Sequence record: PV660448
Length of the DNA stretch: 64,000 nucleotides
From: Escherichia phage LF82-4
Strand: one strand, 5' to 3'
Below, piece after piece: positions 26,680-37,109 of the stretch (positions are counted from its first letter, which is position 1; each line of letters opens with the position of its first letter). The translations under genes and the position numbers were made by a program. The notes under the pieces were generated by a model. It was not told the DNA's origin. It did not search any database and saw nothing but the letters and a program-made list of their open reading frames with translations.

Positions 26680-26711
26680 GATAGTATCACACATCCATGT
26701 GTTTGTAAACT
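26680..26711 (-). promoter_or_regulatory. T4 early-promoter-like element
   Basis: Same GTTTAC...GTGATACTAT cassette followed by SD GAGGA; overlaps alt stop. Confidence 0.5.
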
Positions 26712-28797
26712 ATCCTTGGACAAATTTAAACGGAACTGATTCTAAATCCATTAAAGATGCTAACAATTTCAATCCTTTAGGTGCACTAGTTTTTTCTACA
26801 AATGAAGAGAACGATACCGGCTCATCCGATTCGATTTCACCCGTCATAGCAACCACCTCGCCTGTTTCCATGAGAACATCACCATCATAAATGACAGCTT
26901 CGTCCAACTGGTCCGAGGACATGACTTCAGCTTGAATAAATTTAAGGTTGGATTCTAAACCTGCACCAGTGTCAGATGACGCATCTGTAATTTTATTTAT
27001 TTGCAAGAGAATGCCTCTAGGCAAAATAATTTCTTGCTCATTAGGGTGATTACTCAACTGTCCTGGATAAATCACGTTAACTTTATGAGCGCCGTCAATA
27101 GCCCATCCAACGTTAACACGGATTTGTTCTGGCGCATGCATAGCTGTTCTTACTTGACTAGGAGAAATAGTAACACCTTCATCATTATTGTCAATGTTAA
27201 GCTCTTTGCGAACTTCTTCAGGAGCAAGTCCAAGGGCAACGTTCTCTTTAAACCCACCGAAAATAATAGGAGCTAGTGAAGTGGAAACATAGTTTCTGAA
27301 GTAGAATACCTTATTTTTAACCATTGCTTCGTAAATAGGCATTCTGATAGACTGAGCTCTATATAACGTTAGTCCTTCAGGTAAACGGTCTCCATTTAAA
27401 AACGCTGAATCAAGACCATCGATAGCGCGTTTAACTTCATCTTCATCTGCAACATCGTAAAAATCTGGTTTATAACGACCTAACAACATATTATTGATAT
27501 CGGTATACGCAGAAGAGGCATATTCGCGAATAGCTCGTTTTTCAGCAACAGAGTATTGTTTAGGGTCCCGATTCATTGTTATATTAAAGGTGCCTCTAGC
27601 CGATTCTCGTGCATAAGTATACATCACATTAGACAAGAACGCTGATTTACGTTGTTTCCAAGTTTTTTCAGATACTTCAGCTAAAACGTCGTCAGCCAGT
27701 TGGAAATTATCTCGTCTAAAATCTTCAAACCATTCGTCTTTAATAGAGTCTGCAATTTCATTTGCAGCTTCAACAAAAGCAGCTAATGCTTTAACAGATG
27801 TTGTTTTTTCAGTTTTAATTTTCTTAGCAAACTTTTCTAAAGTTGGCTTAATAACACTACCATAAGAAACTTCATCGGCAAATCTAAAGGATTCATCAAT
27901 ACGATTATAAATCTTATTTTCGATATCAGCAACTAAAGTGCCTTTTGCTGTGGACGATGCTTGGGCTAGTACGATTTCATATGCTTCAGGAAGTAATTCG
28001 GCTGTAGCTGGGCCACTAACTTCTTTAGCAGAATTTTCGTATTTCTGGAATAACTCGCCTTCTTGGCGGTCAGCTTCTAAAGATTGACTTGCTGCAATAG
28101 CACGACGAGAAATTTTGGTGCGAGCAATAACCGGCTTATCTTTACGTTTTTCTTCTACCGCGACAATAGAACCAGCGATAGCCGTTTCTTTTGTGACCTT
28201 TTCACCGGTCTTTTTACTCACATAAACTTCGCCAACATCAGAATCTACTTTCGTGTACAACTCTGTGTTAATGTTAGGGATGCCTTTAATATCCTCAATG
28301 TTGGCATTTTTACGAACCATCATCACATAGGTGTGTTTACCTGTGAATTGATACATTGCAGACAATACTTTAAAACGACCACCGGTTTTAGTAGAAACTA
28401 AACGAGCAAGAAGAGTTTGAAGTTGTTGTCCACGTCCTTTCAATTTCTTGGTAGGGAATCGAAACAGAACTGCATCCATACGAAGAGCTTTAACCTGTTC
28501 ATATACTGTATTGAAAACGGTGTTGATTGCATCAATAGGAGCAGGACCAAGGCCGTTTTTCAATTCAGCGAGATTACCCTTTTCAGACAGACTCATAATA
28601 ACAACATGAGCGTATTTGTCGCCAAGTTTAACTTGTTTTACAGCGTCGCCTTCGGAAAGGTAAGAGAATAAACGAACTACAATATTTGTATCAACATCAC
28701 CAATTTTCCAGACTTGTGGAACTTTAGCTTTAGGGTTCAAATTGACGACAGGAAGACTGCCTTCAGATTCAAACACTTCATTTAATTGTTCAGACAT
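26710..28797 (-). CDS. alt: Alt ADP-ribosyltransferase (capsid-packaged)
   Basis: 695 aa, T4 Alt-like, immediately downstream of DNA ligase gene region as in T4. Confidence 0.9.
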   Translation of the reverse strand: MSEQLNEVFESEGSLPVVNLNPKAKVPQVWKIGDVDTNIVVRLFSYLSEGDAVKQVKLGDKYAHVVIMSLSEKGNLAELKNGLGPAPIDAINTVFNTVYEQVKALRMDAVLFRFPTKKLKGRGQQLQTLLARLVSTKTGGRFKVLSAMYQFTGKHTYVMMVRKNANIEDIKGIPNINTELYTKVDSDVGEVYVSKKTGEKVTKETAIAGSIVAVEEKRKDKPVIARTKISRRAIAASQSLEADRQEGELFQKYENSAKEVSGPATAELLPEAYEIVLAQASSTAKGTLVADIENKIYNRIDESFRFADEVSYGSVIKPTLEKFAKKIKTEKTTSVKALAAFVEAANEIADSIKDEWFEDFRRDNFQLADDVLAEVSEKTWKQRKSAFLSNVMYTYARESARGTFNITMNRDPKQYSVAEKRAIREYASSAYTDINNMLLGRYKPDFYDVADEDEVKRAIDGLDSAFLNGDRLPEGLTLYRAQSIRMPIYEAMVKNKVFYFRNYVSTSLAPIIFGGFKENVALGLAPEEVRKELNIDNNDEGVTISPSQVRTAMHAPEQIRVNVGWAIDGAHKVNVIYPGQLSNHPNEQEIILPRGILLQINKITDASSDTGAGLESNLKFIQAEVMSSDQLDEAVIYDGDVLMETGEVVAMTGEIESDEPVSFSSFVEKTSAPKGLKLLASLMDLESVPFKFVQG

Positions 28798-28836
28798 AGA
28801 GTTTTCCTTTTAGTAATAATTTATATTTATGCCAAA

Positions 28837-28854
28837 AAGAGCCCGAAGGCTCTT
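28837..28854 (-). terminator. Hairpin terminator upstream of alt (end of ligase operon)
   Basis: AAGAGCC-UUCG-GGCUCUU followed by UUUUGG on minus strand. Confidence 0.6.
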
Positions 28855-29041
28855 AATCCACAATCGGGAGCAAAGTACGATAAACTTCAAAATTAGGGCC
28901 TTTTTCGTACTTATCAAAATTGTCCATAAAAATATGATAGGAATCGTTATTAGGAAAATCTAATACAATTTGGGAACAAGAGGTGGAAACATCACCACCG
29001 TCTTTATTAGCGACAACTACTGTTTCTAAATAAGCTTTCAT
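28853..29041 (-). CDS. Hypothetical small protein between ligase and alt
   Basis: Internal ATG shares TAATG with the ligase stop (~62 aa). Confidence 0.5.
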   Translation of the reverse strand: MKAYLETVVVANKDGGDVSTSCSQIVLDFPNNDSYHIFMDNFDKYEKGPNFEVYRTLLPIVD

Positions 29042-30534
29042 TATAAACCTGTCTGGGACCACGGTCCAAATACGTCTTCAAATGAATCCGCTTCTGTTTT
29101 ATCAAAACGGAACCCTTTAATAATTGGAAGGAAAATACCTACAGTGCCTTCACGGCCTTTAGAATGAACCCAACCATTACATTCACAATCAGCGATACGT
29201 CCAATTAATTTACCTTCACGAGCTTCGGTCATTAATCGTTCACGGTCTAAATCATGACGCTCGTCTAAAGGAATAAGAACCTTTACACCGTCAACTGTTT
29301 TATGAGTTGTATCTTTAAAACCTGAACCACAATCGGTTGTAATACGACGACAACGTGATACGAGTTCGACACCACCTAATTTGTTAGGGTCTTTAGAGTG
29401 TTCATAGTATCCTACAACTTCTAAAGCGATATCAATAACTTCTTTAAATTTAATTAGGTTCTTAGAGCGTTTGTTTTCCCAATATGAATCACGGTTTTTA
29501 AGGATAATACCTTCAAGACCTTGGTCAACATATTTTTTATAAACCACTTTAGCTTCGTCAAGATTACGAACTAACTGATTTTCAATTGGCTCAATTCGCT
29601 TAAAGCCTTCAGCCATATTTTCAAGAGCAGCAAAACGAACATCGTATTTCTGACCTTTAATTTTGCCATCAGAATAGACTTCATCTAAAGGAACATAGTC
29701 CCAGGCTTGAAGAACCATACCTTCCGCTTCTTTAGGAGAAATAGTCCCTTGAAGAGATTTATTTGCTAAACCATTTGAAGTGCTACGGTCTGCAACTTGT
29801 ACTTCTTCAGATTCTTCATTATCACCAAATAAGAACGACAGGTCATTTCCTGAGCTCACAGCCTTTTTAATATCAAATGAATGATAAACTAATTCACCGT
29901 CAATTAAAACCCCATTAGGGTGTCTTTCACGAGCTTCTTTAGTCATTTCCATTAGTTCATCCGCTAATAGGGTAAGACCATGGTATTCATTACCAGCACG
30001 AGAAAAGAATTGAACACCATCATCGCGAACTTCAGCGAAACAACGAGCGCCATCGGCTTTTAATTGAGCAAATGCAGGCCATTTAATATTTTTAGTAATC
30101 AATTTCTCGTCATATGCAGATGCTAACATCTGCGGTTGCAATTGAATAAGTCCAGGCCATACCTTATTCGCGATAGACACTGAAGCACCTACTTCAAGGT
30201 CTCGCATCATTACACGACGTAGTACTTCTACATCATCAGGTTTACCGTCAGCGATATAACCCATGAGCTCTTTAATTGCTGCATTACCAGTGAGCTTACG
30301 AGTGGCTAATGTGAACTCAATAAAATCCAACATGTCATCTAATTCAAGAAGTCCATACGCTTGAGACCTTTCACCTGGTCCTGGCCATTTCTTAATATAA
30401 TACTGAATGCCACGTGCATACGTTAAACGATATACACGTTCAAGTAATTTGTTGTCCTTATTTTTCTTAAGGATTTCCTGTTTTGTTTTAGTAGAACCGA
30501 TCGCAGCTATTTGGTTTAAAATATCTAAAATCAT
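29041..30534 (-). CDS. 30: ATP-dependent DNA ligase (gp30)
   Basis: 497 aa; adenylation motif KADGAR; N-terminus MILDILNQIAAIGSTKTKQEIL... matches T4 DNA ligase. Confidence 0.97.
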   Translation of the reverse strand: MILDILNQIAAIGSTKTKQEILKKNKDNKLLERVYRLTYARGIQYYIKKWPGPGERSQAYGLLELDDMLDFIEFTLATRKLTGNAAIKELMGYIADGKPDDVEVLRRVMMRDLEVGASVSIANKVWPGLIQLQPQMLASAYDEKLITKNIKWPAFAQLKADGARCFAEVRDDGVQFFSRAGNEYHGLTLLADELMEMTKEARERHPNGVLIDGELVYHSFDIKKAVSSGNDLSFLFGDNEESEEVQVADRSTSNGLANKSLQGTISPKEAEGMVLQAWDYVPLDEVYSDGKIKGQKYDVRFAALENMAEGFKRIEPIENQLVRNLDEAKVVYKKYVDQGLEGIILKNRDSYWENKRSKNLIKFKEVIDIALEVVGYYEHSKDPNKLGGVELVSRCRRITTDCGSGFKDTTHKTVDGVKVLIPLDERHDLDRERLMTEAREGKLIGRIADCECNGWVHSKGREGTVGIFLPIIKGFRFDKTEADSFEDVFGPWSQTGL

Positions 30535-30800
30535 TTGATATCCTCGATTTTGGTTACGGTTCTATTATAAGCCACTTCATCTAGAAGCGATTTCAGCGTT
30601 TTCTGATAAGTGGTAATCCATTTACCGAGTCCTTCAACATAATATTCTGAAATGTAGATGAACCCTTGTTCAACACACTCTTTAAATATTTCTGCGTCTT
30701 TTACTGAACGAAACACCGGCCAGTCTCGAAAGAACATGTTAACGTGACCGTAGTCACGTGTGGTGTTTTTGCCATCTGTAATATCATGAACTACAAACAT
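30531..30800 (-). CDS. Hypothetical protein (30.1 position)
   Basis: 89-aa ORF overlapping ligase start. Confidence 0.6.
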   Translation of the reverse strand: MFVVHDITDGKNTTRDYGHVNMFFRDWPVFRSVKDAEIFKECVEQGFIYISEYYVEGLGKWITTYQKTLKSLLDEVAYNRTVTKIEDIK

Positions 30801-30809
30801 AATTAGCCC

Positions 30810-31634
30810 TTAACAATTTATAGACCAAGTCCATTTAGACGAATCTAAAGGAAAGTTTTGAATCGTCCACCATGGCTGCATATCGGTTGGTCCTGGGGTT
30901 CGCCAGGTATATGGAGTACGTGTTGTCGAGGGGCCACCAATTTGATTAGGCCATGCACCTGGACTTGTTGCACCAGATTCTTTAAGCAAATCCGCCAATC
31001 GTTTTAAAAGGTCTTCACGATCTGAATCTGAATTATGCTCTGGCGGAACCAATCGAGATTCAATATCATCCCACGTGTGTACACGTTGTGCAGTGCGAGG
31101 AATATCATCACGTTCACCACGAGCCAACCAATAAATCGGTACATTAAGAATTTCTGCCGCATGGTCACAGTGATGAGCTAAATCGTCAACGTAACAAATC
31201 ACGTTATATTTTGTTTTAGCTAGTTCGAATAATTGTTCCTTTGAAGAATCATGACCACACATCATTACTTCAGAGAAAGCGCCTGGGAACAAAGCATTCA
31301 AATTAAATTGTCTATTCAATCGAGCATCAATTGAATCACCTAGCGCCGTCACGGCTACAAAATTATAGTCTTCTTTTAGTTTATTGATAACTCGAAGAGC
31401 ATCTGAATAAGGCGCTAAGTAACGAATAAAATCAGAGCTATTATATTTTTCTATTAATTGTTTACCAAGGTTATCGTCGGTATTGAACAGTTTACCAGGA
31501 GAAATAAATTTTTCGTCCTGAATCATTTTTAAAATATGTTCTAATGGAAGATTATATTTTTGGGCAAAATAAGGAAGTCCAGATTGCCAACTTAAACATA
31601 CACCATCAATATCAGTCAAAATAGTAGGCTTCAT
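30810..31634 (-). CDS. HAD-like hydrolase-fold protein (30.2 position)
   Basis: 274 aa; N-terminal ILTDIDGV (DxDG-type HAD motif I); Trp/Pro-rich C-terminal tail. Confidence 0.65.
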   Translation of the reverse strand: MKPTILTDIDGVCLSWQSGLPYFAQKYNLPLEHILKMIQDEKFISPGKLFNTDDNLGKQLIEKYNSSDFIRYLAPYSDALRVINKLKEDYNFVAVTALGDSIDARLNRQFNLNALFPGAFSEVMMCGHDSSKEQLFELAKTKYNVICYVDDLAHHCDHAAEILNVPIYWLARGERDDIPRTAQRVHTWDDIESRLVPPEHNSDSDREDLLKRLADLLKESGATSPGAWPNQIGGPSTTRTPYTWRTPGPTDMQPWWTIQNFPLDSSKWTWSINC

Positions 31635-32098
31635 AAAGAGTCTCTTAATAGGTTTAACACATCAATAAATTCAGCTTCAGTTAGTATTGTATCATCTTTT
31701 GTTAGGTGGCTGGCCATGCTATGCTTCAAAATTTTTCCTTTAGAGGCTTGTAAGGCATCACGAAATCCCTTATTTTGGATCGCTGCTTCAAAATATGCAT
31801 TTGTGTATAATTCTTTCCACGCTTCAGAGTATCTTGAAAATGGAACTCCCAACCAGAAGAGGGTCCCACGGTCCTGAGCTCTTGCATAAGACCTTCCAGC
31901 TTGTTGGGCGGCAAGCCCGGATAGCCCAAATATACGTCTTTGTTGTTCAACATTTTTCACCTTACATCCTTGGAGAAACCCTTCAAGACCTCCGAATTGA
32001 ATACCGTCCATAACAAAAGGCCATTGAGCAAAGTTACTTAATGCACATGACGGCCACTTGAAATTACTTCTTATTTCTAATTCAGACATCTTTAACAC
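31631..32098 (-). CDS. NADAR (YbiA-like) domain protein (30.3 position)
   Basis: 155 aa; LSNFAQWPFVMDG closely resembles the YbiA/NADAR core motif FSNFAAWPIKVDG. Confidence 0.7.
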   Translation of the reverse strand: MLKMSELEIRSNFKWPSCALSNFAQWPFVMDGIQFGGLEGFLQGCKVKNVEQQRRIFGLSGLAAQQAGRSYARAQDRGTLFWLGVPFSRYSEAWKELYTNAYFEAAIQNKGFRDALQASKGKILKHSMASHLTKDDTILTEAEFIDVLNLLRDSL

Positions 32099-32300
32099 TT
32101 ATAATTTCAACATCAGCCCAATGACCATATCCGGGTATACGGTCTTCGATAGATAAATTTCCGTCATTTTTAGGCATTTTAATTGACGTAACGTATGGTT
32201 CTAAACGGTTTTCTGCATAATACGGAAAAACGTCTGTTACACGATAAGTAACTTCAATCATTTCCGTACCAAACAATTTCTGGATTAATTTATTCAACAT
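32082..32300 (-). CDS. Hypothetical protein
   Basis: 72-aa ORF in tightly packed leftward operon. Confidence 0.5.
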   Translation of the reverse strand: MLNKLIQKLFGTEMIEVTYRVTDVFPYYAENRLEPYVTSIKMPKNDGNLSIEDRIPGYGHWADVEIISVKDV

Positions 32301-32487
32301 GTTTCAACCCTTTAATAGGAGATAACTCTTTACCCATACGTATGTCAGAAGTCCAATCAACCCATTGAACAGCATACGCTTCATTGATAATTCCAGCGGC
32401 GGTTTTAAATTCAGGGAGAACTTTAAAAATCACCCCAGGAATTCCAACACCTTTTAATTGGACTGTTTGTGCTATTAAAAATTTCAT
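32290..32487 (-). CDS. Hypothetical protein
   Basis: 65-aa ORF in tightly packed leftward operon. Confidence 0.5.
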   Translation of the reverse strand: MKFLIAQTVQLKGVGIPGVIFKVLPEFKTAAGIINEAYAVQWVDWTSDIRMGKELSPIKGLKHVE

Positions 32488-32541
32488 ATTTTTCCACTTA
32501 CTAAAGAAATCATTATACTCTAATCCGTCCTTGGATGTAAA

Positions 32542-33156
32542 CTACTTAATGAAATTAATTTCTACCGGATGAACAACAGGTTGAGCAGTGATATATTGAG
32601 TAATTGCTTTCATGACTAGAGCTTCAGAGCCAGGATTTTTCTCAACGAATTCACGTGCTTGGTTATGAGCTTCAAGTTCACTTAGTAAACCACTTCGTTG
32701 ACATCCACGGTCTTGAGTACCCTGTTCAGATAAAAAGGCGACGATGTATTTTTCATCGTCATAAGGTTTAGGCAGTTGAGCAAACGTTCCTTTACTTCCG
32801 AAAGGAGAGTTATGACGCCACATATCGCCGTGAGGAGTTTCAACCTTCGTATATTCGTGCGGGCCATTTTTCTTAATTTCTTGATGTGGAACTTCATGGA
32901 CCTTAGGGTTAGGACATTCAATAAAATGCTCGTCTAAATCGGTCGAGAATATTAAAGTAAAACAATTACTGAATTTACCAACACCTGCCTGATAAATTTT
33001 ACCTTCAGAAGTTCTAATTTCACAAACTGAGCCGGCATCAGTAACTTCTAAAACTTCAAAAGGCTCGATAAGGTCATATGAGAACATGTTTTTAAGGCGT
33101 GGAGTAATATCCCCATTTTTAAAATTCATTTTATAAAAAGTATTAACTTTAAACAT
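32542..33156 (-). CDS. Hypothetical protein (204 aa)
   Basis: ATG with SD GAGGA; UUCG hairpin just upstream. Confidence 0.6.
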   Translation of the reverse strand: MFKVNTFYKMNFKNGDITPRLKNMFSYDLIEPFEVLEVTDAGSVCEIRTSEGKIYQAGVGKFSNCFTLIFSTDLDEHFIECPNPKVHEVPHQEIKKNGPHEYTKVETPHGDMWRHNSPFGSKGTFAQLPKPYDDEKYIVAFLSEQGTQDRGCQRSGLLSELEAHNQAREFVEKNPGSEALVMKAITQYITAQPVVHPVEINFIK

Positions 33157-33191
33157 AATTTCCTCAGTGGGAGCCGAAGCTCCCAGTTAAA

Positions 33192-33557
33192 TTAGATATC
33201 GAATTCATTAAGAACTACATCAAAGATTGCTTCCAGGTGTTCAGGTTTAGCTCGGTTGCTCAGGATGTGACGAATCCAAGTTTTAACCAGAAGCTTACGA
33301 TTAACACCGTTCCAGCAAGGATGAGTACCTAAATCACGCTGACGGAAATCGTCATCTAATGCAATTTTGAAGTTGGAACCTTCCATCGTGATTGAAACCG
33401 TGATGCCATTTTCAAATCGCATATAAACGTAATTAGGAGTCATGCACTGTTCGATTTCACATACTGAACCATTTTTATGTTTCCATAAGCAAATAACTTC
33501 AGAAGAACCAGCGATACCGTTAGAAACATATTTACGTTCGAAGTTGATGTAGTTCAT
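33192..33557 (-). CDS. Hypothetical protein (~121 aa)
   Basis: Internal ATG (MNYINFERK...) with SD GGAG; upstream promoter-embedded hairpin. Confidence 0.6.
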   Translation of the reverse strand: MNYINFERKYVSNGIAGSSEVICLWKHKNGSVCEIEQCMTPNYVYMRFENGITVSITMEGSNFKIALDDDFRQRDLGTHPCWNGVNRKLLVKTWIRHILSNRAKPEHLEAIFDVVLNEFDI

Positions 33558-33585
33558 TTTATTCTCCAGATGTTTAAGTTGTTTG

Positions 33586-33627
33586 TTGGTACAGGTATAT
33601 AATAACATAACCTGTACCAAAGTAAAC
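33586..33627 (-). promoter_or_regulatory. Early-promoter-like element with -10 inside a stem-loop (PeSL-like)
   Basis: GTTTAC at 33622-33627; 10-bp inverted repeat TTGGTACAGG/CCTGTACCAA (33586-33620) enclosing TATATAAT. Confidence 0.5.
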
Positions 33628-33631
33628 TGTT

Positions 33632-34000
33632 TTATGCAACTTTAATCCAATTGTCTAAATTTAAAACACCTTTGGCTTTCATTTTTTCGATCAGGTTATC
33701 TGCTGTAATGCGTCCATTTTGATACCATGTAACATCTTCAGAGTAACCAGTTTCTTCGTCAACATATGTTTCTGAACGAATTTTACCTGTAATAATAGTT
33801 TTTAATTCGTATGTGTCACCTGTGAAAAAGTTTGCTAACACAATTTTCCAAGAGAAATCATCAGAAGGACCTTCAGGGGTCATACAACCTACGAACTCAA
33901 ATTGCTCTTTGTATAACATCCACTGGAATTCTTTAATTTCGATAGCTTTATAACCGTCGTGGTCTTTACATTTGATGTATGAGTTCAGATTGATTTTCAT
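33632..34000 (-). CDS. Hypothetical protein (122 aa)
   Basis: ATG with SD GGAGAA; early-promoter-like element upstream. Confidence 0.6.
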   Translation of the reverse strand: MKINLNSYIKCKDHDGYKAIEIKEFQWMLYKEQFEFVGCMTPEGPSDDFSWKIVLANFFTGDTYELKTIITGKIRSETYVDEETGYSEDVTWYQNGRITADNLIEKMKAKGVLNLDNWIKVA

Positions 34001-34037
34001 TTTGTTCTCCGGTTTGTTTTATTGATTAGGTGGTACA

Positions 34038-34071
34038 AGTCTATAGTAACACATCCTACAGGAGAGTAAAC
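34038..34071 (-). promoter_or_regulatory. T4 early-promoter-like element
   Basis: GTTTAC...TGTTACTATAG cassette upstream of ORF 33632-34000. Confidence 0.5.
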
Positions 34072-34108
34072 ACTTTTTTTAAACTTTTTCTGCCCTAAAC
34101 GCACAAAA

Positions 34109-34126
34109 GGGAGACCGAAGTCTCCC
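34109..34126 (-). terminator. Hairpin terminator after the 59-aa basic ORF
   Basis: GGGAGAC-UUCG-GUCUCCC followed by UUUUGU on minus strand. Confidence 0.65.
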
Positions 34127-34131
34127 TAAAA

Positions 34132-34311
34132 TTATGCAACAACCTTTCCAAAACGAGAAGCATCATCTCGAAGAACTGCACGTGCTCTGCGCATGATCTT
34201 CTCAACTGTTTGATTAATACGAGAGTTCGACCCACGCTTGTATCCAGCGCGTTTAGAGGTACCATCAACTTTCTTTTCAACTGCTTTCTTTGCTTTAGCT
34301 TGTTTTGCCAT
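34132..34311 (-). CDS. Small highly basic protein (59 aa), not in the ORF track
   Basis: Hand-translated: MAKQAKAKKAVEKKVDGTSKRAGYKRGSNSRINQTVEKIMRRARAVLRDDASRFGKVVA; followed by GGGAGAC-UUCG-GUCUCCC terminator. Confidence 0.55.
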   Translation of the reverse strand: MAKQAKAKKAVEKKVDGTSKRAGYKRGSNSRINQTVEKIMRRARAVLRDDASRFGKVVA

Positions 34312-34474
34312 TATAAATTCTCTTTAAATGAAAATGCAGGACTTATTGACATTGCCTGCGCAAGCCCTCAAGGGGAACATAGGTTTTGGATATTTAACGA
34401 CAGGATAACCATAAACCCGTCATCATACCTACCATGACTTACACAGCTAACCTTTTGCTGACGCATGATAGCAA

Positions 34475-34723
34475 TTATTTCAAAGTAATAACAAAATGAC
34501 GAACTGCTTTACGAGCTGCAGAAGCCAGAGGCTTAGCATATTTCAGTTCATCTTTTGCTTCCAGTTCAGCAGCCAGAGTAGCCTGAGCAGGATTCAGATG
34601 TTTGAAATATCGCAGGATTTCCAGTGCTTCGGCTTCAACATCAATTGAAGCGCCGTAGTTTTCGTGACCGTTATTCCATGCGTTGCGTTGCAGTTCAAGA
34701 GCGTGTTGTAATTGTTTAATCAT
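34475..34723 (-). CDS. rIII: rIII lysis-inhibition accessory protein
   Basis: 82 aa (T4 rIII length) upstream of gene 31 in transcription order. Confidence 0.8.
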   Translation of the reverse strand: MIKQLQHALELQRNAWNNGHENYGASIDVEAEALEILRYFKHLNPAQATLAAELEAKDELKYAKPLASAARKAVRHFVITLK

Positions 34724-34847
34724 TTTAAATTCTCAATTCGAGATAATATTTAGTAGCCACGTTCGTCTGAATTTCACCTTCTTTCGACAAGTCTCTCAGT
34801 TGTAGGCTACCGCTTAGAAGAGTGTTCTCTTCATATAGTTATTTATA

Positions 34848-35180
34848 TCACTTATAAAGACACGGAATAGCTTTATAGTGGCATGTTACGAATTTCTGTT
34901 TAATTTCTTTAGGTTGTTTAAGTCCCAAAGCCACAAATGGATGTGGAACATTTCGAATTTGTCCAACTGGTAGTGGAGTCAAATCACCGACTTCAACAAA
35001 ACCTTCAGGAACATCAGGACCTACAGAATGAACTACGCATAGTTCAGGAACTTCACCTTGAACACGTTTACCAATCACAAGTCCTGATTCGGTAACTTCT
35101 TCATCACCTGCTTGAGCGGGTTCAGAAACCAGAATGACATATTCACCAACAGCACGAATTGGGAGTTGTACTTCAGACAT
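34848..35180 (-). CDS. 31: Co-chaperonin gp31 (GroES analogue)
   Basis: 110 aa, T4 gp31-like. Confidence 0.92.
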
Positions 35181-35237
35181 CTTATTTCCTTGTTGTTTGA
35201 CGATAGATTAATAATACCATACTATTCGTAAAGCATA

Positions 35238-35546: not shown

Positions 35547-36117
35547 AAAAGTTTCGGATTTGTTCCCAATTCAGAGAACGAAGATTATTACGAGAGTACT
35601 GAATTACTTCAATACCAGCTTGTTTTAGAATATCTGCCCAATTTTCAGGAGATCGGTCGTATAATTCTGCGTATACAACCTTTTTAATACCTGACTGCGT
35701 AATAGCTTTAGTGCAATCAGGACACGGAGAAAGCGTAGTATATAACGTAGCACCTTCAATAGAATTACCTTTACGAGCGGCAAACAAAATTGCATTCAAT
35801 TCTGCATGGATTTCATTATTAGCAGACCATGCACTATGAGCAGCTCGATGTTCTTTGGCTAAAACAAAATTATCTACCCGTCCAAATGCTGTAGTGCCTT
35901 CTTTATGTCCAGCAACGATGACTGGGATTGGTTTATTCTTCAACCAACCATTTTCAGATGCATGTTCGCAACAGTTAACGCCACCTGCAGGTGAACCGTT
36001 ATATCCAGTAGAGATAATGCGTCCATCTTTTTCAATGACGGCACCAACTTTCCATGAACAACATTTTGATTCTTGAGAAATCAGATATGCAATCTGAAGG
36101 TATGTGCTAGCTTTCAT
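35536..36117 (-). CDS. cd: dCMP deaminase
   Basis: 193 aa (T4 Cd length); zinc-binding HAE...PCxxC (HAELNAILFAARKG, SPCPDCTKAI). Confidence 0.95.
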   Translation of the reverse strand: MKASTYLQIAYLISQESKCCSWKVGAVIEKDGRIISTGYNGSPAGGVNCCEHASENGWLKNKPIPVIVAGHKEGTTAFGRVDNFVLAKEHRAAHSAWSANNEIHAELNAILFAARKGNSIEGATLYTTLSPCPDCTKAITQSGIKKVVYAELYDRSPENWADILKQAGIEVIQYSRNNLRSLNWEQIRNFCGE

Positions 36118-37109
36118 TATTGAACCTTATTAATATAAGTTAACAGCTCTTTAGTTTGTTCCCAACTGATGCACGCATCGGTAACGGAAACGCCATAGGA
36201 CATATTATCAGAAATTTTTTGATTTCCTTCATGTAGGAACGATTCTATCATAATTCCTTTGACCAAATCATTAGCTGCTAAATTTTTACCAATACCAATT
36301 TGATTGCTATAATGCCCATCAGCGTTTGCATGGCTACAGTCAACCATTACATAATGATTCAGACCTACTGCCCTTGCTTTGTTAGAAGCTTCTTGAATAT
36401 CAGAAGAATGATAGTTCGGGCCGTTGGTCCCGCCACGCAATACGATATGCGTATTCTGATTACCTTCAGCTTCAACAATGCCTACAGTACCATCGACGTC
36501 CATACCCATATACCGATGAGGCCAGGCGGCACTATACATCGCGTCTGTAGCTACTTTAATAGAACCATTGGTTGCGTTCTTGAAGCCTACGCACATCGGT
36601 AGACCTGAAGCAATTTCACGATGTGTCTGACTTTCAGTCGTACGGGCGCCAATAGCAACCCATGAGAAAATACCAGAAAGATACTTAATCGTGAATGGGT
36701 CTAATACTTCAGTTGCTAATGGAAGTCCCATACGTAGAAGTTTACGACACAATGTTCGTGCAACTATAAGACCGTGGTTCATATCAAAACTTCCGTCAAG
36801 ATATGGATCATTTACAAGACCTTTCCAACCTACGGTAGTTCGAGGCTTTTCAAAATAAACGCGCATCACTAACAGAACATTAGGAAGACGAGTTTGAAGT
36901 TCAGCCAGACGTTTGCCGTATTCAACCGCGGCAATAGGGTCATGAATTGAACAAGGACCTACAACAATAAGTTTGCGTGGGTCTTCACCGTTCATAATCG
37001 AATTAACTTGTTCGCGATGAGAAGCCACTTGTGATGCGTAAGCTTCCGACAAAGGAATAATCTCAGCCAGTTCTTTTGGAGAAATAAGTTTTCCGACGAC
37101 AGGTAACAT
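36117..37109 (-). CDS. 3-deoxy-D-arabino-heptulosonate-7-phosphate (DAHP) synthase, class I (AroF/AroG-like)
   Basis: 330 aa; motifs GPCSIHDP, VMRVYFEKPRTTVGWKGL, DCSHANADG, IMIESFLHEGNQ, YGVSVTDACISWE; SD AAGGA; stop overlaps cd start (TAATG). Confidence 0.92.
   Translation of the reverse strand: MLPVVGKLISPKELAEIIPLSEAYASQVASHREQVNSIMNGEDPRKLIVVGPCSIHDPIAAVEYGKRLAELQTRLPNVLLVMRVYFEKPRTTVGWKGLVNDPYLDGSFDMNHGLIVARTLCRKLLRMGLPLATEVLDPFTIKYLSGIFSWVAIGARTTESQTHREIASGLPMCVGFKNATNGSIKVATDAMYSAAWPHRYMGMDVDGTVGIVEAEGNQNTHIVLRGGTNGPNYHSSDIQEASNKARAVGLNHYVMVDCSHANADGHYSNQIGIGKNLAANDLVKGIMIESFLHEGNQKISDNMSYGVSVTDACISWEQTKELLTYINKVQ

Follow-up and report, generated by a model that had tools for sequence, protein, structure and literature searches.

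The stretch analyzed here (the window) comprises 64,000 nucleotides of sequence record PV660448 from Escherichia phage LF82-4. Across positions 30500-33200, the sequence is shared at 100% identity with Escherichia phage LF82-1 and sibling phages; a megablast search with this segment matched 695 phage records. The gene order 30.5-30.4-30.3-30.2-30.1-lig is common to the window and T4. The window is a genome segment of a Tequatrovirus, a T4-like coliphage. An earlier reading made from the sequence only had flagged a 155-amino-acid (aa) open reading frame (ORF) with a NADAR-like motif. This ORF is real: it extends from a GTG codon on the minus strand at 31631..32098, and its translation contains CALSNFAQWPFVMDG. 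It is gene 30.3 (adfN) of a T4-like phage. The features needed for the argument, in their order on the minus strand, are as follows.

32512..32541, minus strand: sigma-70-type promoter match, TTTACA-18-TATAAT, 11/12 positions; a consensus match only, candidate early promoter.
32082..32300, minus strand: gene 30.4, 72 aa, phrog_2042; its stop shares 8 nucleotides (nt) with the adfN start.
31631..32089, minus strand: adfN (gene 30.3) coding sequence, 152 aa plus stop; predicted NADAR-fold DNA ADP-ribosylglycohydrolase.
32030..32038, minus strand: codons for S18-N19-F20, core of the N-terminal "ALSNF" motif; A16 to F20 do not vary among 56 family members and align with FSNF of YbiA.
31961..31984, minus strand: codons for E36 to K43 (EGFLQGCK), with predicted catalytic Glu36 and Lys43; E36, G37, F38, Q40, and K43 are invariant, and the segment corresponds to E48 to K55 of YbiA.
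31721..31723, minus strand: codon for H123, a marker of the gp30.3 clade, invariant in 56/56 members; it replaces the last-strand Glu of YbiA or Asp of DarG1.
31631..31678, minus strand: last 15 codons plus stop, C-terminal helix (138-151 in the model), identical to T4.
30810..31634, minus strand: gene 30.2, 274 aa, with ILTDIDGV; predicted HAD-fold hydrolase with a disordered C-terminal tail, given as context.
28818..28853, minus strand: UUCG hairpin and T-run, then a box resembling a late promoter, in front of alt; the arrangement in T4 is the same.

The ORF matched the Pfam family PF08010 (Phage_30_3) over the full model (positions 1-138 of 138) with an E value of 1.9e-69 and a score of 232 bits against a cutoff of 36, and it also matched PHROG 652. 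Homologs of gp30.3 were found by tblastn in 1,510 of 50,697 phage records; together with the PF08010 match, this indicates that the ORF is not a chance occurrence. In GenBank the product is labeled "hypothetical protein," both here and in almost all phage records among the matches listed. Translation most likely begins at the ATG at 32089, which yields 152 aa, rather than at the GTG at 32098, because the homologous gene is annotated from the equivalent ATG in both T4 (NC_000866) and LF82-1 and because the protein read from this codon aligns with T4 gp30.3 without gaps over 152/152 residues, 147 of them identical (97%). At both ends adfN shares nucleotides with its neighbors: 8 nt between its ATG and the stop of gene 30.4 (ATGTCTGA), and an ATGA junction between its stop and the start of gene 30.2.

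Assignment of gp30.3 to the NADAR family rests on the family profile and on fold comparison, since searches with the single sequence were empty: the window protein alone did not match Pfam NADAR (PF08719) at an E value of ≤1, and nothing was found when the ORF was searched against PDB sequences, NCBIfam, or PADLOC. We gathered 107 homologs, of which 56 could be aligned at full length, with identities down to 35%. Eighteen of these 56 members matched PF08719 individually (best E value, 1.5e-7), and the family profile searched against PDB sequences retrieved Escherichia coli YbiA (2b3w) with an E value of 0.0022. The Pfam check proposed along with the sequence-only reading was thus negative for the single protein and positive for the family. 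In the profile alignment, the stretch LSNFA..PF..DG was paired with FSNFAAWPIKVDG of YbiA (2b3w residues 29-41), so that the YbiA motif which that reading had given is correct and does align with the stretch it had singled out, and gp30.3 E36 and K43 correspond to YbiA E48 and K55. The invariant columns among the 56 aligned members include A16-L17-S18-N19-F20, E36-G37-F38, Q40, K43, and H123, and the Glu and Lys of the E-x-x-F-Q-x-x-K helix as well as the N-terminal SNF motif are conserved in the gp30.3 family. An AlphaFold2 model built on the family alignment without the T4 row had a mean pLDDT of 94.2 and a pTM of 0.89, and its top three Foldseek matches in the PDB were YbiA, the Phytophthora NADAR with ADP-ribose (8bau), and the Geobacter lovleyi NADAR (8bat). 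The predicted structure confirmed gp30.3 as a protein of the NADAR alpha+beta fold, and the family membership proposed from sequence was borne out by the helix, the SNF motif, the profile relationship, and the fold alike.

The function of the T4 protein has been established experimentally. T4 gp30.3 was named AdfN, for "anti-DarT factor NADAR," and was reported to remove ADP-ribose (ADPr) from guanine in DNA and to be both necessary and sufficient for resistance of T-even phages to DarTG1 (Johannesman et al., Nat Commun 2025, PMC11825919). Mapping by recombination between the resistant phages T2 and T4 and the sensitive phage RB69 led to the 3' end of 30.3; in RB69, a frameshift removes the last 15 residues, which renders the phage sensitive to DarTG1, and ectopic adfN rescues it. 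Deletion of adfN in T4 or T2 abolished plaquing on DarTG1 hosts, the purified protein stripped ADPr from DarT1-modified DNA in vitro whereas the E36A variant was inactive there, and E36A and K43A both impaired AdfN-T4 (PMC11825919). Earlier in vitro work had shown that T4 gp30.3 hydrolyzes guanine-ADPr and not thymine-ADPr (PMC11125620). In an independent transposon screen of T4, insertions in 30.3 were lost specifically under DarTG1 (bioRxiv 10.1101/2025.11.20.689424); the values taken from this screen cover the part of its HIDEN-SEQ DarTG1 table that runs, in table order, from gene 26 to rnlA, and 30.3 is given in Data S6 with a log2 fold change (log2FC) of -7.25 and an adjusted p of 0.

The window allele retains E36, K43, H123, and the entire C-terminal helix and does not have the truncation of the RB69 type. 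Relative to T4 it has five substitutions, conservative or of the surface type (window to T4: K11R, E89P, I120V, M125I, and H128G), none of them in an invariant column. At the nucleotide level, adfN is 90.6% identical to its T4 counterpart, with 32 synonymous and 5 nonsynonymous codon differences, a pattern that indicates strong purifying selection on the coding sequence. A recent recombination patch was considered as the source of a 97% identical 30.3 amid flanks of 53 to 69% and was rejected on the basis of the nucleotide identity and these codon changes; strong purifying selection suffices, and no transfer is needed. We regard it as very probable that the gene is the ortholog of T4 adfN and encodes a NADAR enzyme that counters DarTG1, and the conservation of its key residues lets us predict with high confidence that the allele is functional. 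As the T4 protein with demonstrated activity and phenotype is 97% identical, the same behavior is expected of the window allele: by analogy, its product should hydrolyze guanine-ADPr, and adfN should be required for growth of the phage on DarTG1 hosts. The suggestion that this gene acts as a phage anti-DarT factor is therefore supported by published activity of AdfN from T4 (PMC11825919, PMC11125620). The function is already known from experiments on that protein, and the window gene is an unremarkable, well-conserved representative of a known family.

AdfN would be made as a small single-domain NADAR enzyme, probably early in infection. In a host carrying DarTG1, the DarT1 toxin would ADP-ribosylate guanines of the phage DNA and block replication; AdfN would then cut the N-glycosidic bond between guanine and ADP-ribose and restore the DNA, allowing the phage to replicate in DarTG1-carrying E. 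coli. As an orphan enzyme, AdfN would in this way mimic the antitoxin DarG1. The neighbors of adfN in the window are 30.4 and 30.2 and include no DarT1 toxin, and PADLOC gave no defense-system match for genes 30.2 to 30.5 or for the 204-aa ORF upstream of them; being an orphan, adfN does not qualify as the DarG1 antitoxin of a toxin-antitoxin operon. In contrast to DarG1 (for example, from E. coli C7 and Geobacter lovleyi, 8bat), gp30.3 has no N-terminal extension, carries His123 in place of the catalytic Asp, and shows approximately 14% identity in structural alignment, and T4 gp30.3 cannot substitute for DarG1 in uninfected cells. AdfN-Bas32 and AdfN-Bas60 (from T5-like phages and Vequintavirinae) are likewise orphan phage NADARs that counter DarTG1, but they belong to other NADAR clades, were acquired independently, and, according to the published description, work without T-even infection. 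The closest relation is with AdfN-T4 itself, which shares the gene order, the overlapping start and stop, and all of the residues discussed above, although the flanking genes are far more diverged. An LF82-infecting T4-like phage thus appears to carry an intact counterdefense gene against DarTG1, and recognizing such genes would help to annotate therapeutic T4-like phages and to predict their host range.

The mechanism of AdfN is incomplete as it stands. AdfN-T4 does not neutralize DarT1 in uninfected cells and rescues non-T-even phages just partly, which implies that a T-even factor or context is needed; the AdfN authors themselves propose a further T-even factor. Gene 30.4 could be such a factor, or part of it, required by AdfN-T4 for full activity. 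Homologs of 30.4 were found only beside a gp30.3 of at least 84% identity and are confined to the T-even group. Within the part of the screen table from gene 26 to rnlA, 30.4 is the sole other significantly depleted gene, its insertions having a log2FC of -1.79 under DarTG1 (adjusted p, 0.014), and it is absent from the main text of that paper (bioRxiv 10.1101/2025.11.20.689424). The 8-nt overlap between 30.4 and adfN is kept in 14/14 close relatives and suggests that the two genes are translationally coupled. The simplest explanation for the depletion of 30.4 is that insertions there exert a partly polar effect on adfN, the coupled gene downstream. The gp30.4 of the window is 53% identical to that of T4, while adfN is 97% identical. 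We consider it unlikely that 30.4 is the T-even factor.

An alternative to the AdfN reading is that the main role of the enzyme is not antidefense and that it instead reverses or edits the ADP-ribosylation of host proteins or RNA by Alt, ModA, and ModB. This was raised in the sequence-only reading, which placed the gene in the same operon as alt. The Alt ADP-ribosyltransferase gene lies on the same strand at 26710..28797 (Pfam ADPrib_exo_Tox; E value, 6e-28), with its start 2.8 kb downstream of adfN; strand and distance are as described, but the claim of a shared operon goes too far and was rejected in that form, because the spacer between alt.1 and alt contains a terminator-like hairpin and a late-promoter-like box. 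Directly after alt.1 is a UUCG-loop hairpin (AGAGCC-TTCG-GGCTCT) with a T-run at 28853..28834, which the promoter and terminator scan did not call, and after the hairpin comes a box close to the late-promoter consensus at 28831..28818 (TATAAATT / CATAAATA). At the homologous place, T4 carries this hairpin too, together with an exact TATAAATA. Having this hairpin and box in front of it, alt seems to form a late transcription unit by itself. Of the sigma-70-type matches in the region, the best (TTTACA-18-TATAAT) directly precedes 30.5-30.4-30.3-30.2-30.1-30. Judged by these consensus matches, genes 30.5 to 30 would belong to an early unit and alt to a late one, and adfN would be expressed early from the promoter-like site upstream of 30.5.

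Other evidence also speaks against editing of the phage's own modifications. All tested NADARs act on guanine-ADPr, in which the bond to the base is N-glycosidic, and not on thymine-ADPr, and no activity on protein-ADPr is reported in the NADAR literature cited here. In the portion of the published screen considered, T4 insertions in alt, modA, and modB proved neutral under DarTG1. T4 gene 30.3 is nonessential on K-12, where Alt and the Mod enzymes act normally. Most of the distant gp30.3-family loci have no Alt homolog within 4 kb. With neutral alt, modA, and modB insertions in that portion of the screen and a separate late-like unit for alt, the proposal that the enzyme edits Alt or Mod products did not hold up, and we judge it very improbable.

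It is also highly unlikely that gp30.3 acts as a YbiA-like N-glycosidase on small molecules, whether intermediates of the riboflavin pathway or soluble immune signals derived from ADPr. YbiA has a housekeeping role as an N-glycosidase of riboflavin intermediates, but the Glu that defines the YbiA clade is replaced in gp30.3 by the invariant His. This last-strand His, at the place of Glu in YbiA (2b3w) and the Phytophthora NADAR (8bau), to which gp30.3 is 19 to 21% identical, has been described as a marker of the gp30.3 clade (PMC11125620, PMC11543638), and the published phylogeny places that clade nearest to the NADARs associated with DarT1. Moreover, the T4 protein directly de-ADP-ribosylates DNA and has a phenotype specific to DarTG1. 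The preferred reading remains that of an AdfN enzyme acting on DNA.

The gene that adjoins adfN downstream, 30.2, encodes the 274-aa protein in which a HAD-like hydrolase had been recognized, with the suggestion that it belongs to the same functional neighborhood. The first part of this claim stands. From sequence alone the HAD assignment is borderline, but the motif set is complete (D8/D10, T96, K132, and D150-D151, conserved in 42 homologs), and the AlphaFold2 model, with a pLDDT of >90 across approximately 200 residues, supports the conclusion that gp30.2 does have a HAD fold. The functional link fared less well. That 30.3 and 30.2 form a two-gene module in which gp30.2 processes the released ADP-ribose or a phosphorylated intermediate might be argued from their ATGA stop/start overlap, from the whole HAD catalytic motif set and fold of gp30.2, and from the need of AdfN-T4 for an additional T-even factor, but we hold it to be extremely improbable, since T4 insertions in 30.2 (71 sites) are neutral under DarTG1 in the portion of the screen considered (log2FC, -0.12; p = 0.61) and since most gp30.3-family loci outside the T4-like 30.x-ligase block have no 30.2 homolog within 4 kb. 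Among 80 viral gp30.3-family loci, a nearby 30.2 homolog was found only in that synteny block; most loci at 38 to 45% identity had none within 4 kb, and the genes downstream of gp30.3 in two distant loci (L003 and L008) are unrelated to 30.2. A conserved 30.3-30.2 module was rejected on these grounds, the adjacency being limited to T4-like phages. As far as the values considered go, the published screen argues against both 30.2 and alt as the T-even cofactor of AdfN. The C-terminal tail of gp30.2 (approximately residues 225-274; 30810..30960, minus strand) is rich in P, W, and T, is predicted to be disordered (pLDDT, <50), and could not be aligned with the T4 tail, while the HAD domain is 69 to 80% conserved.

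A further ORF of 75 codons lies in the +1 frame inside adfN (31726..31953, minus strand) and corresponds to the gene annotated in T4 as 30.3'. We rejected it as a second gene: of 14 close relatives, 8 have lost its ATG start, and one carries an in-frame stop. Over the same DNA, identity to T4 is 83% in the 30.3' frame and 97% in the main frame, and an ATG-initiated ORF of 75 codons in this frame arises in 5% of synonymous-codon shuffles. Judging from these comparisons, 30.3' is probably not a gene.

The surroundings of adfN (26710..35200) are strongly mosaic relative to T4 (L001 in the locus comparison). The products gp30.3, 30.7, 30.9, rIII, and gp31 are 94 to 97% identical to those of T4, while identities are 42% for Alt, 64% for the ligase, 58% for gp30.1, 69% for gp30.2, 53% for gp30.4, and 37% for gp30.8. 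In the place of T4 30.6 is the 204-aa ORF (32542..33156, minus strand; phrog_17531), for which searches of Pfam, NCBIfam, and PADLOC gave no match. Among the loci compared, only LF82-1 and a single metagenomic relative (L011) have this ORF, which suggests mosaic replacement of T4 30.6. Farther upstream, at the place of T4 cd.1/cd.2 and directly upstream of the dCMP deaminase, the window encodes a 330-aa DAHP synthase of the AroFGH type (36117..37109, minus strand; NCBIfam TIGR00034; E value, 2.4e-128); this auxiliary metabolic gene occurs in 212 phage records.
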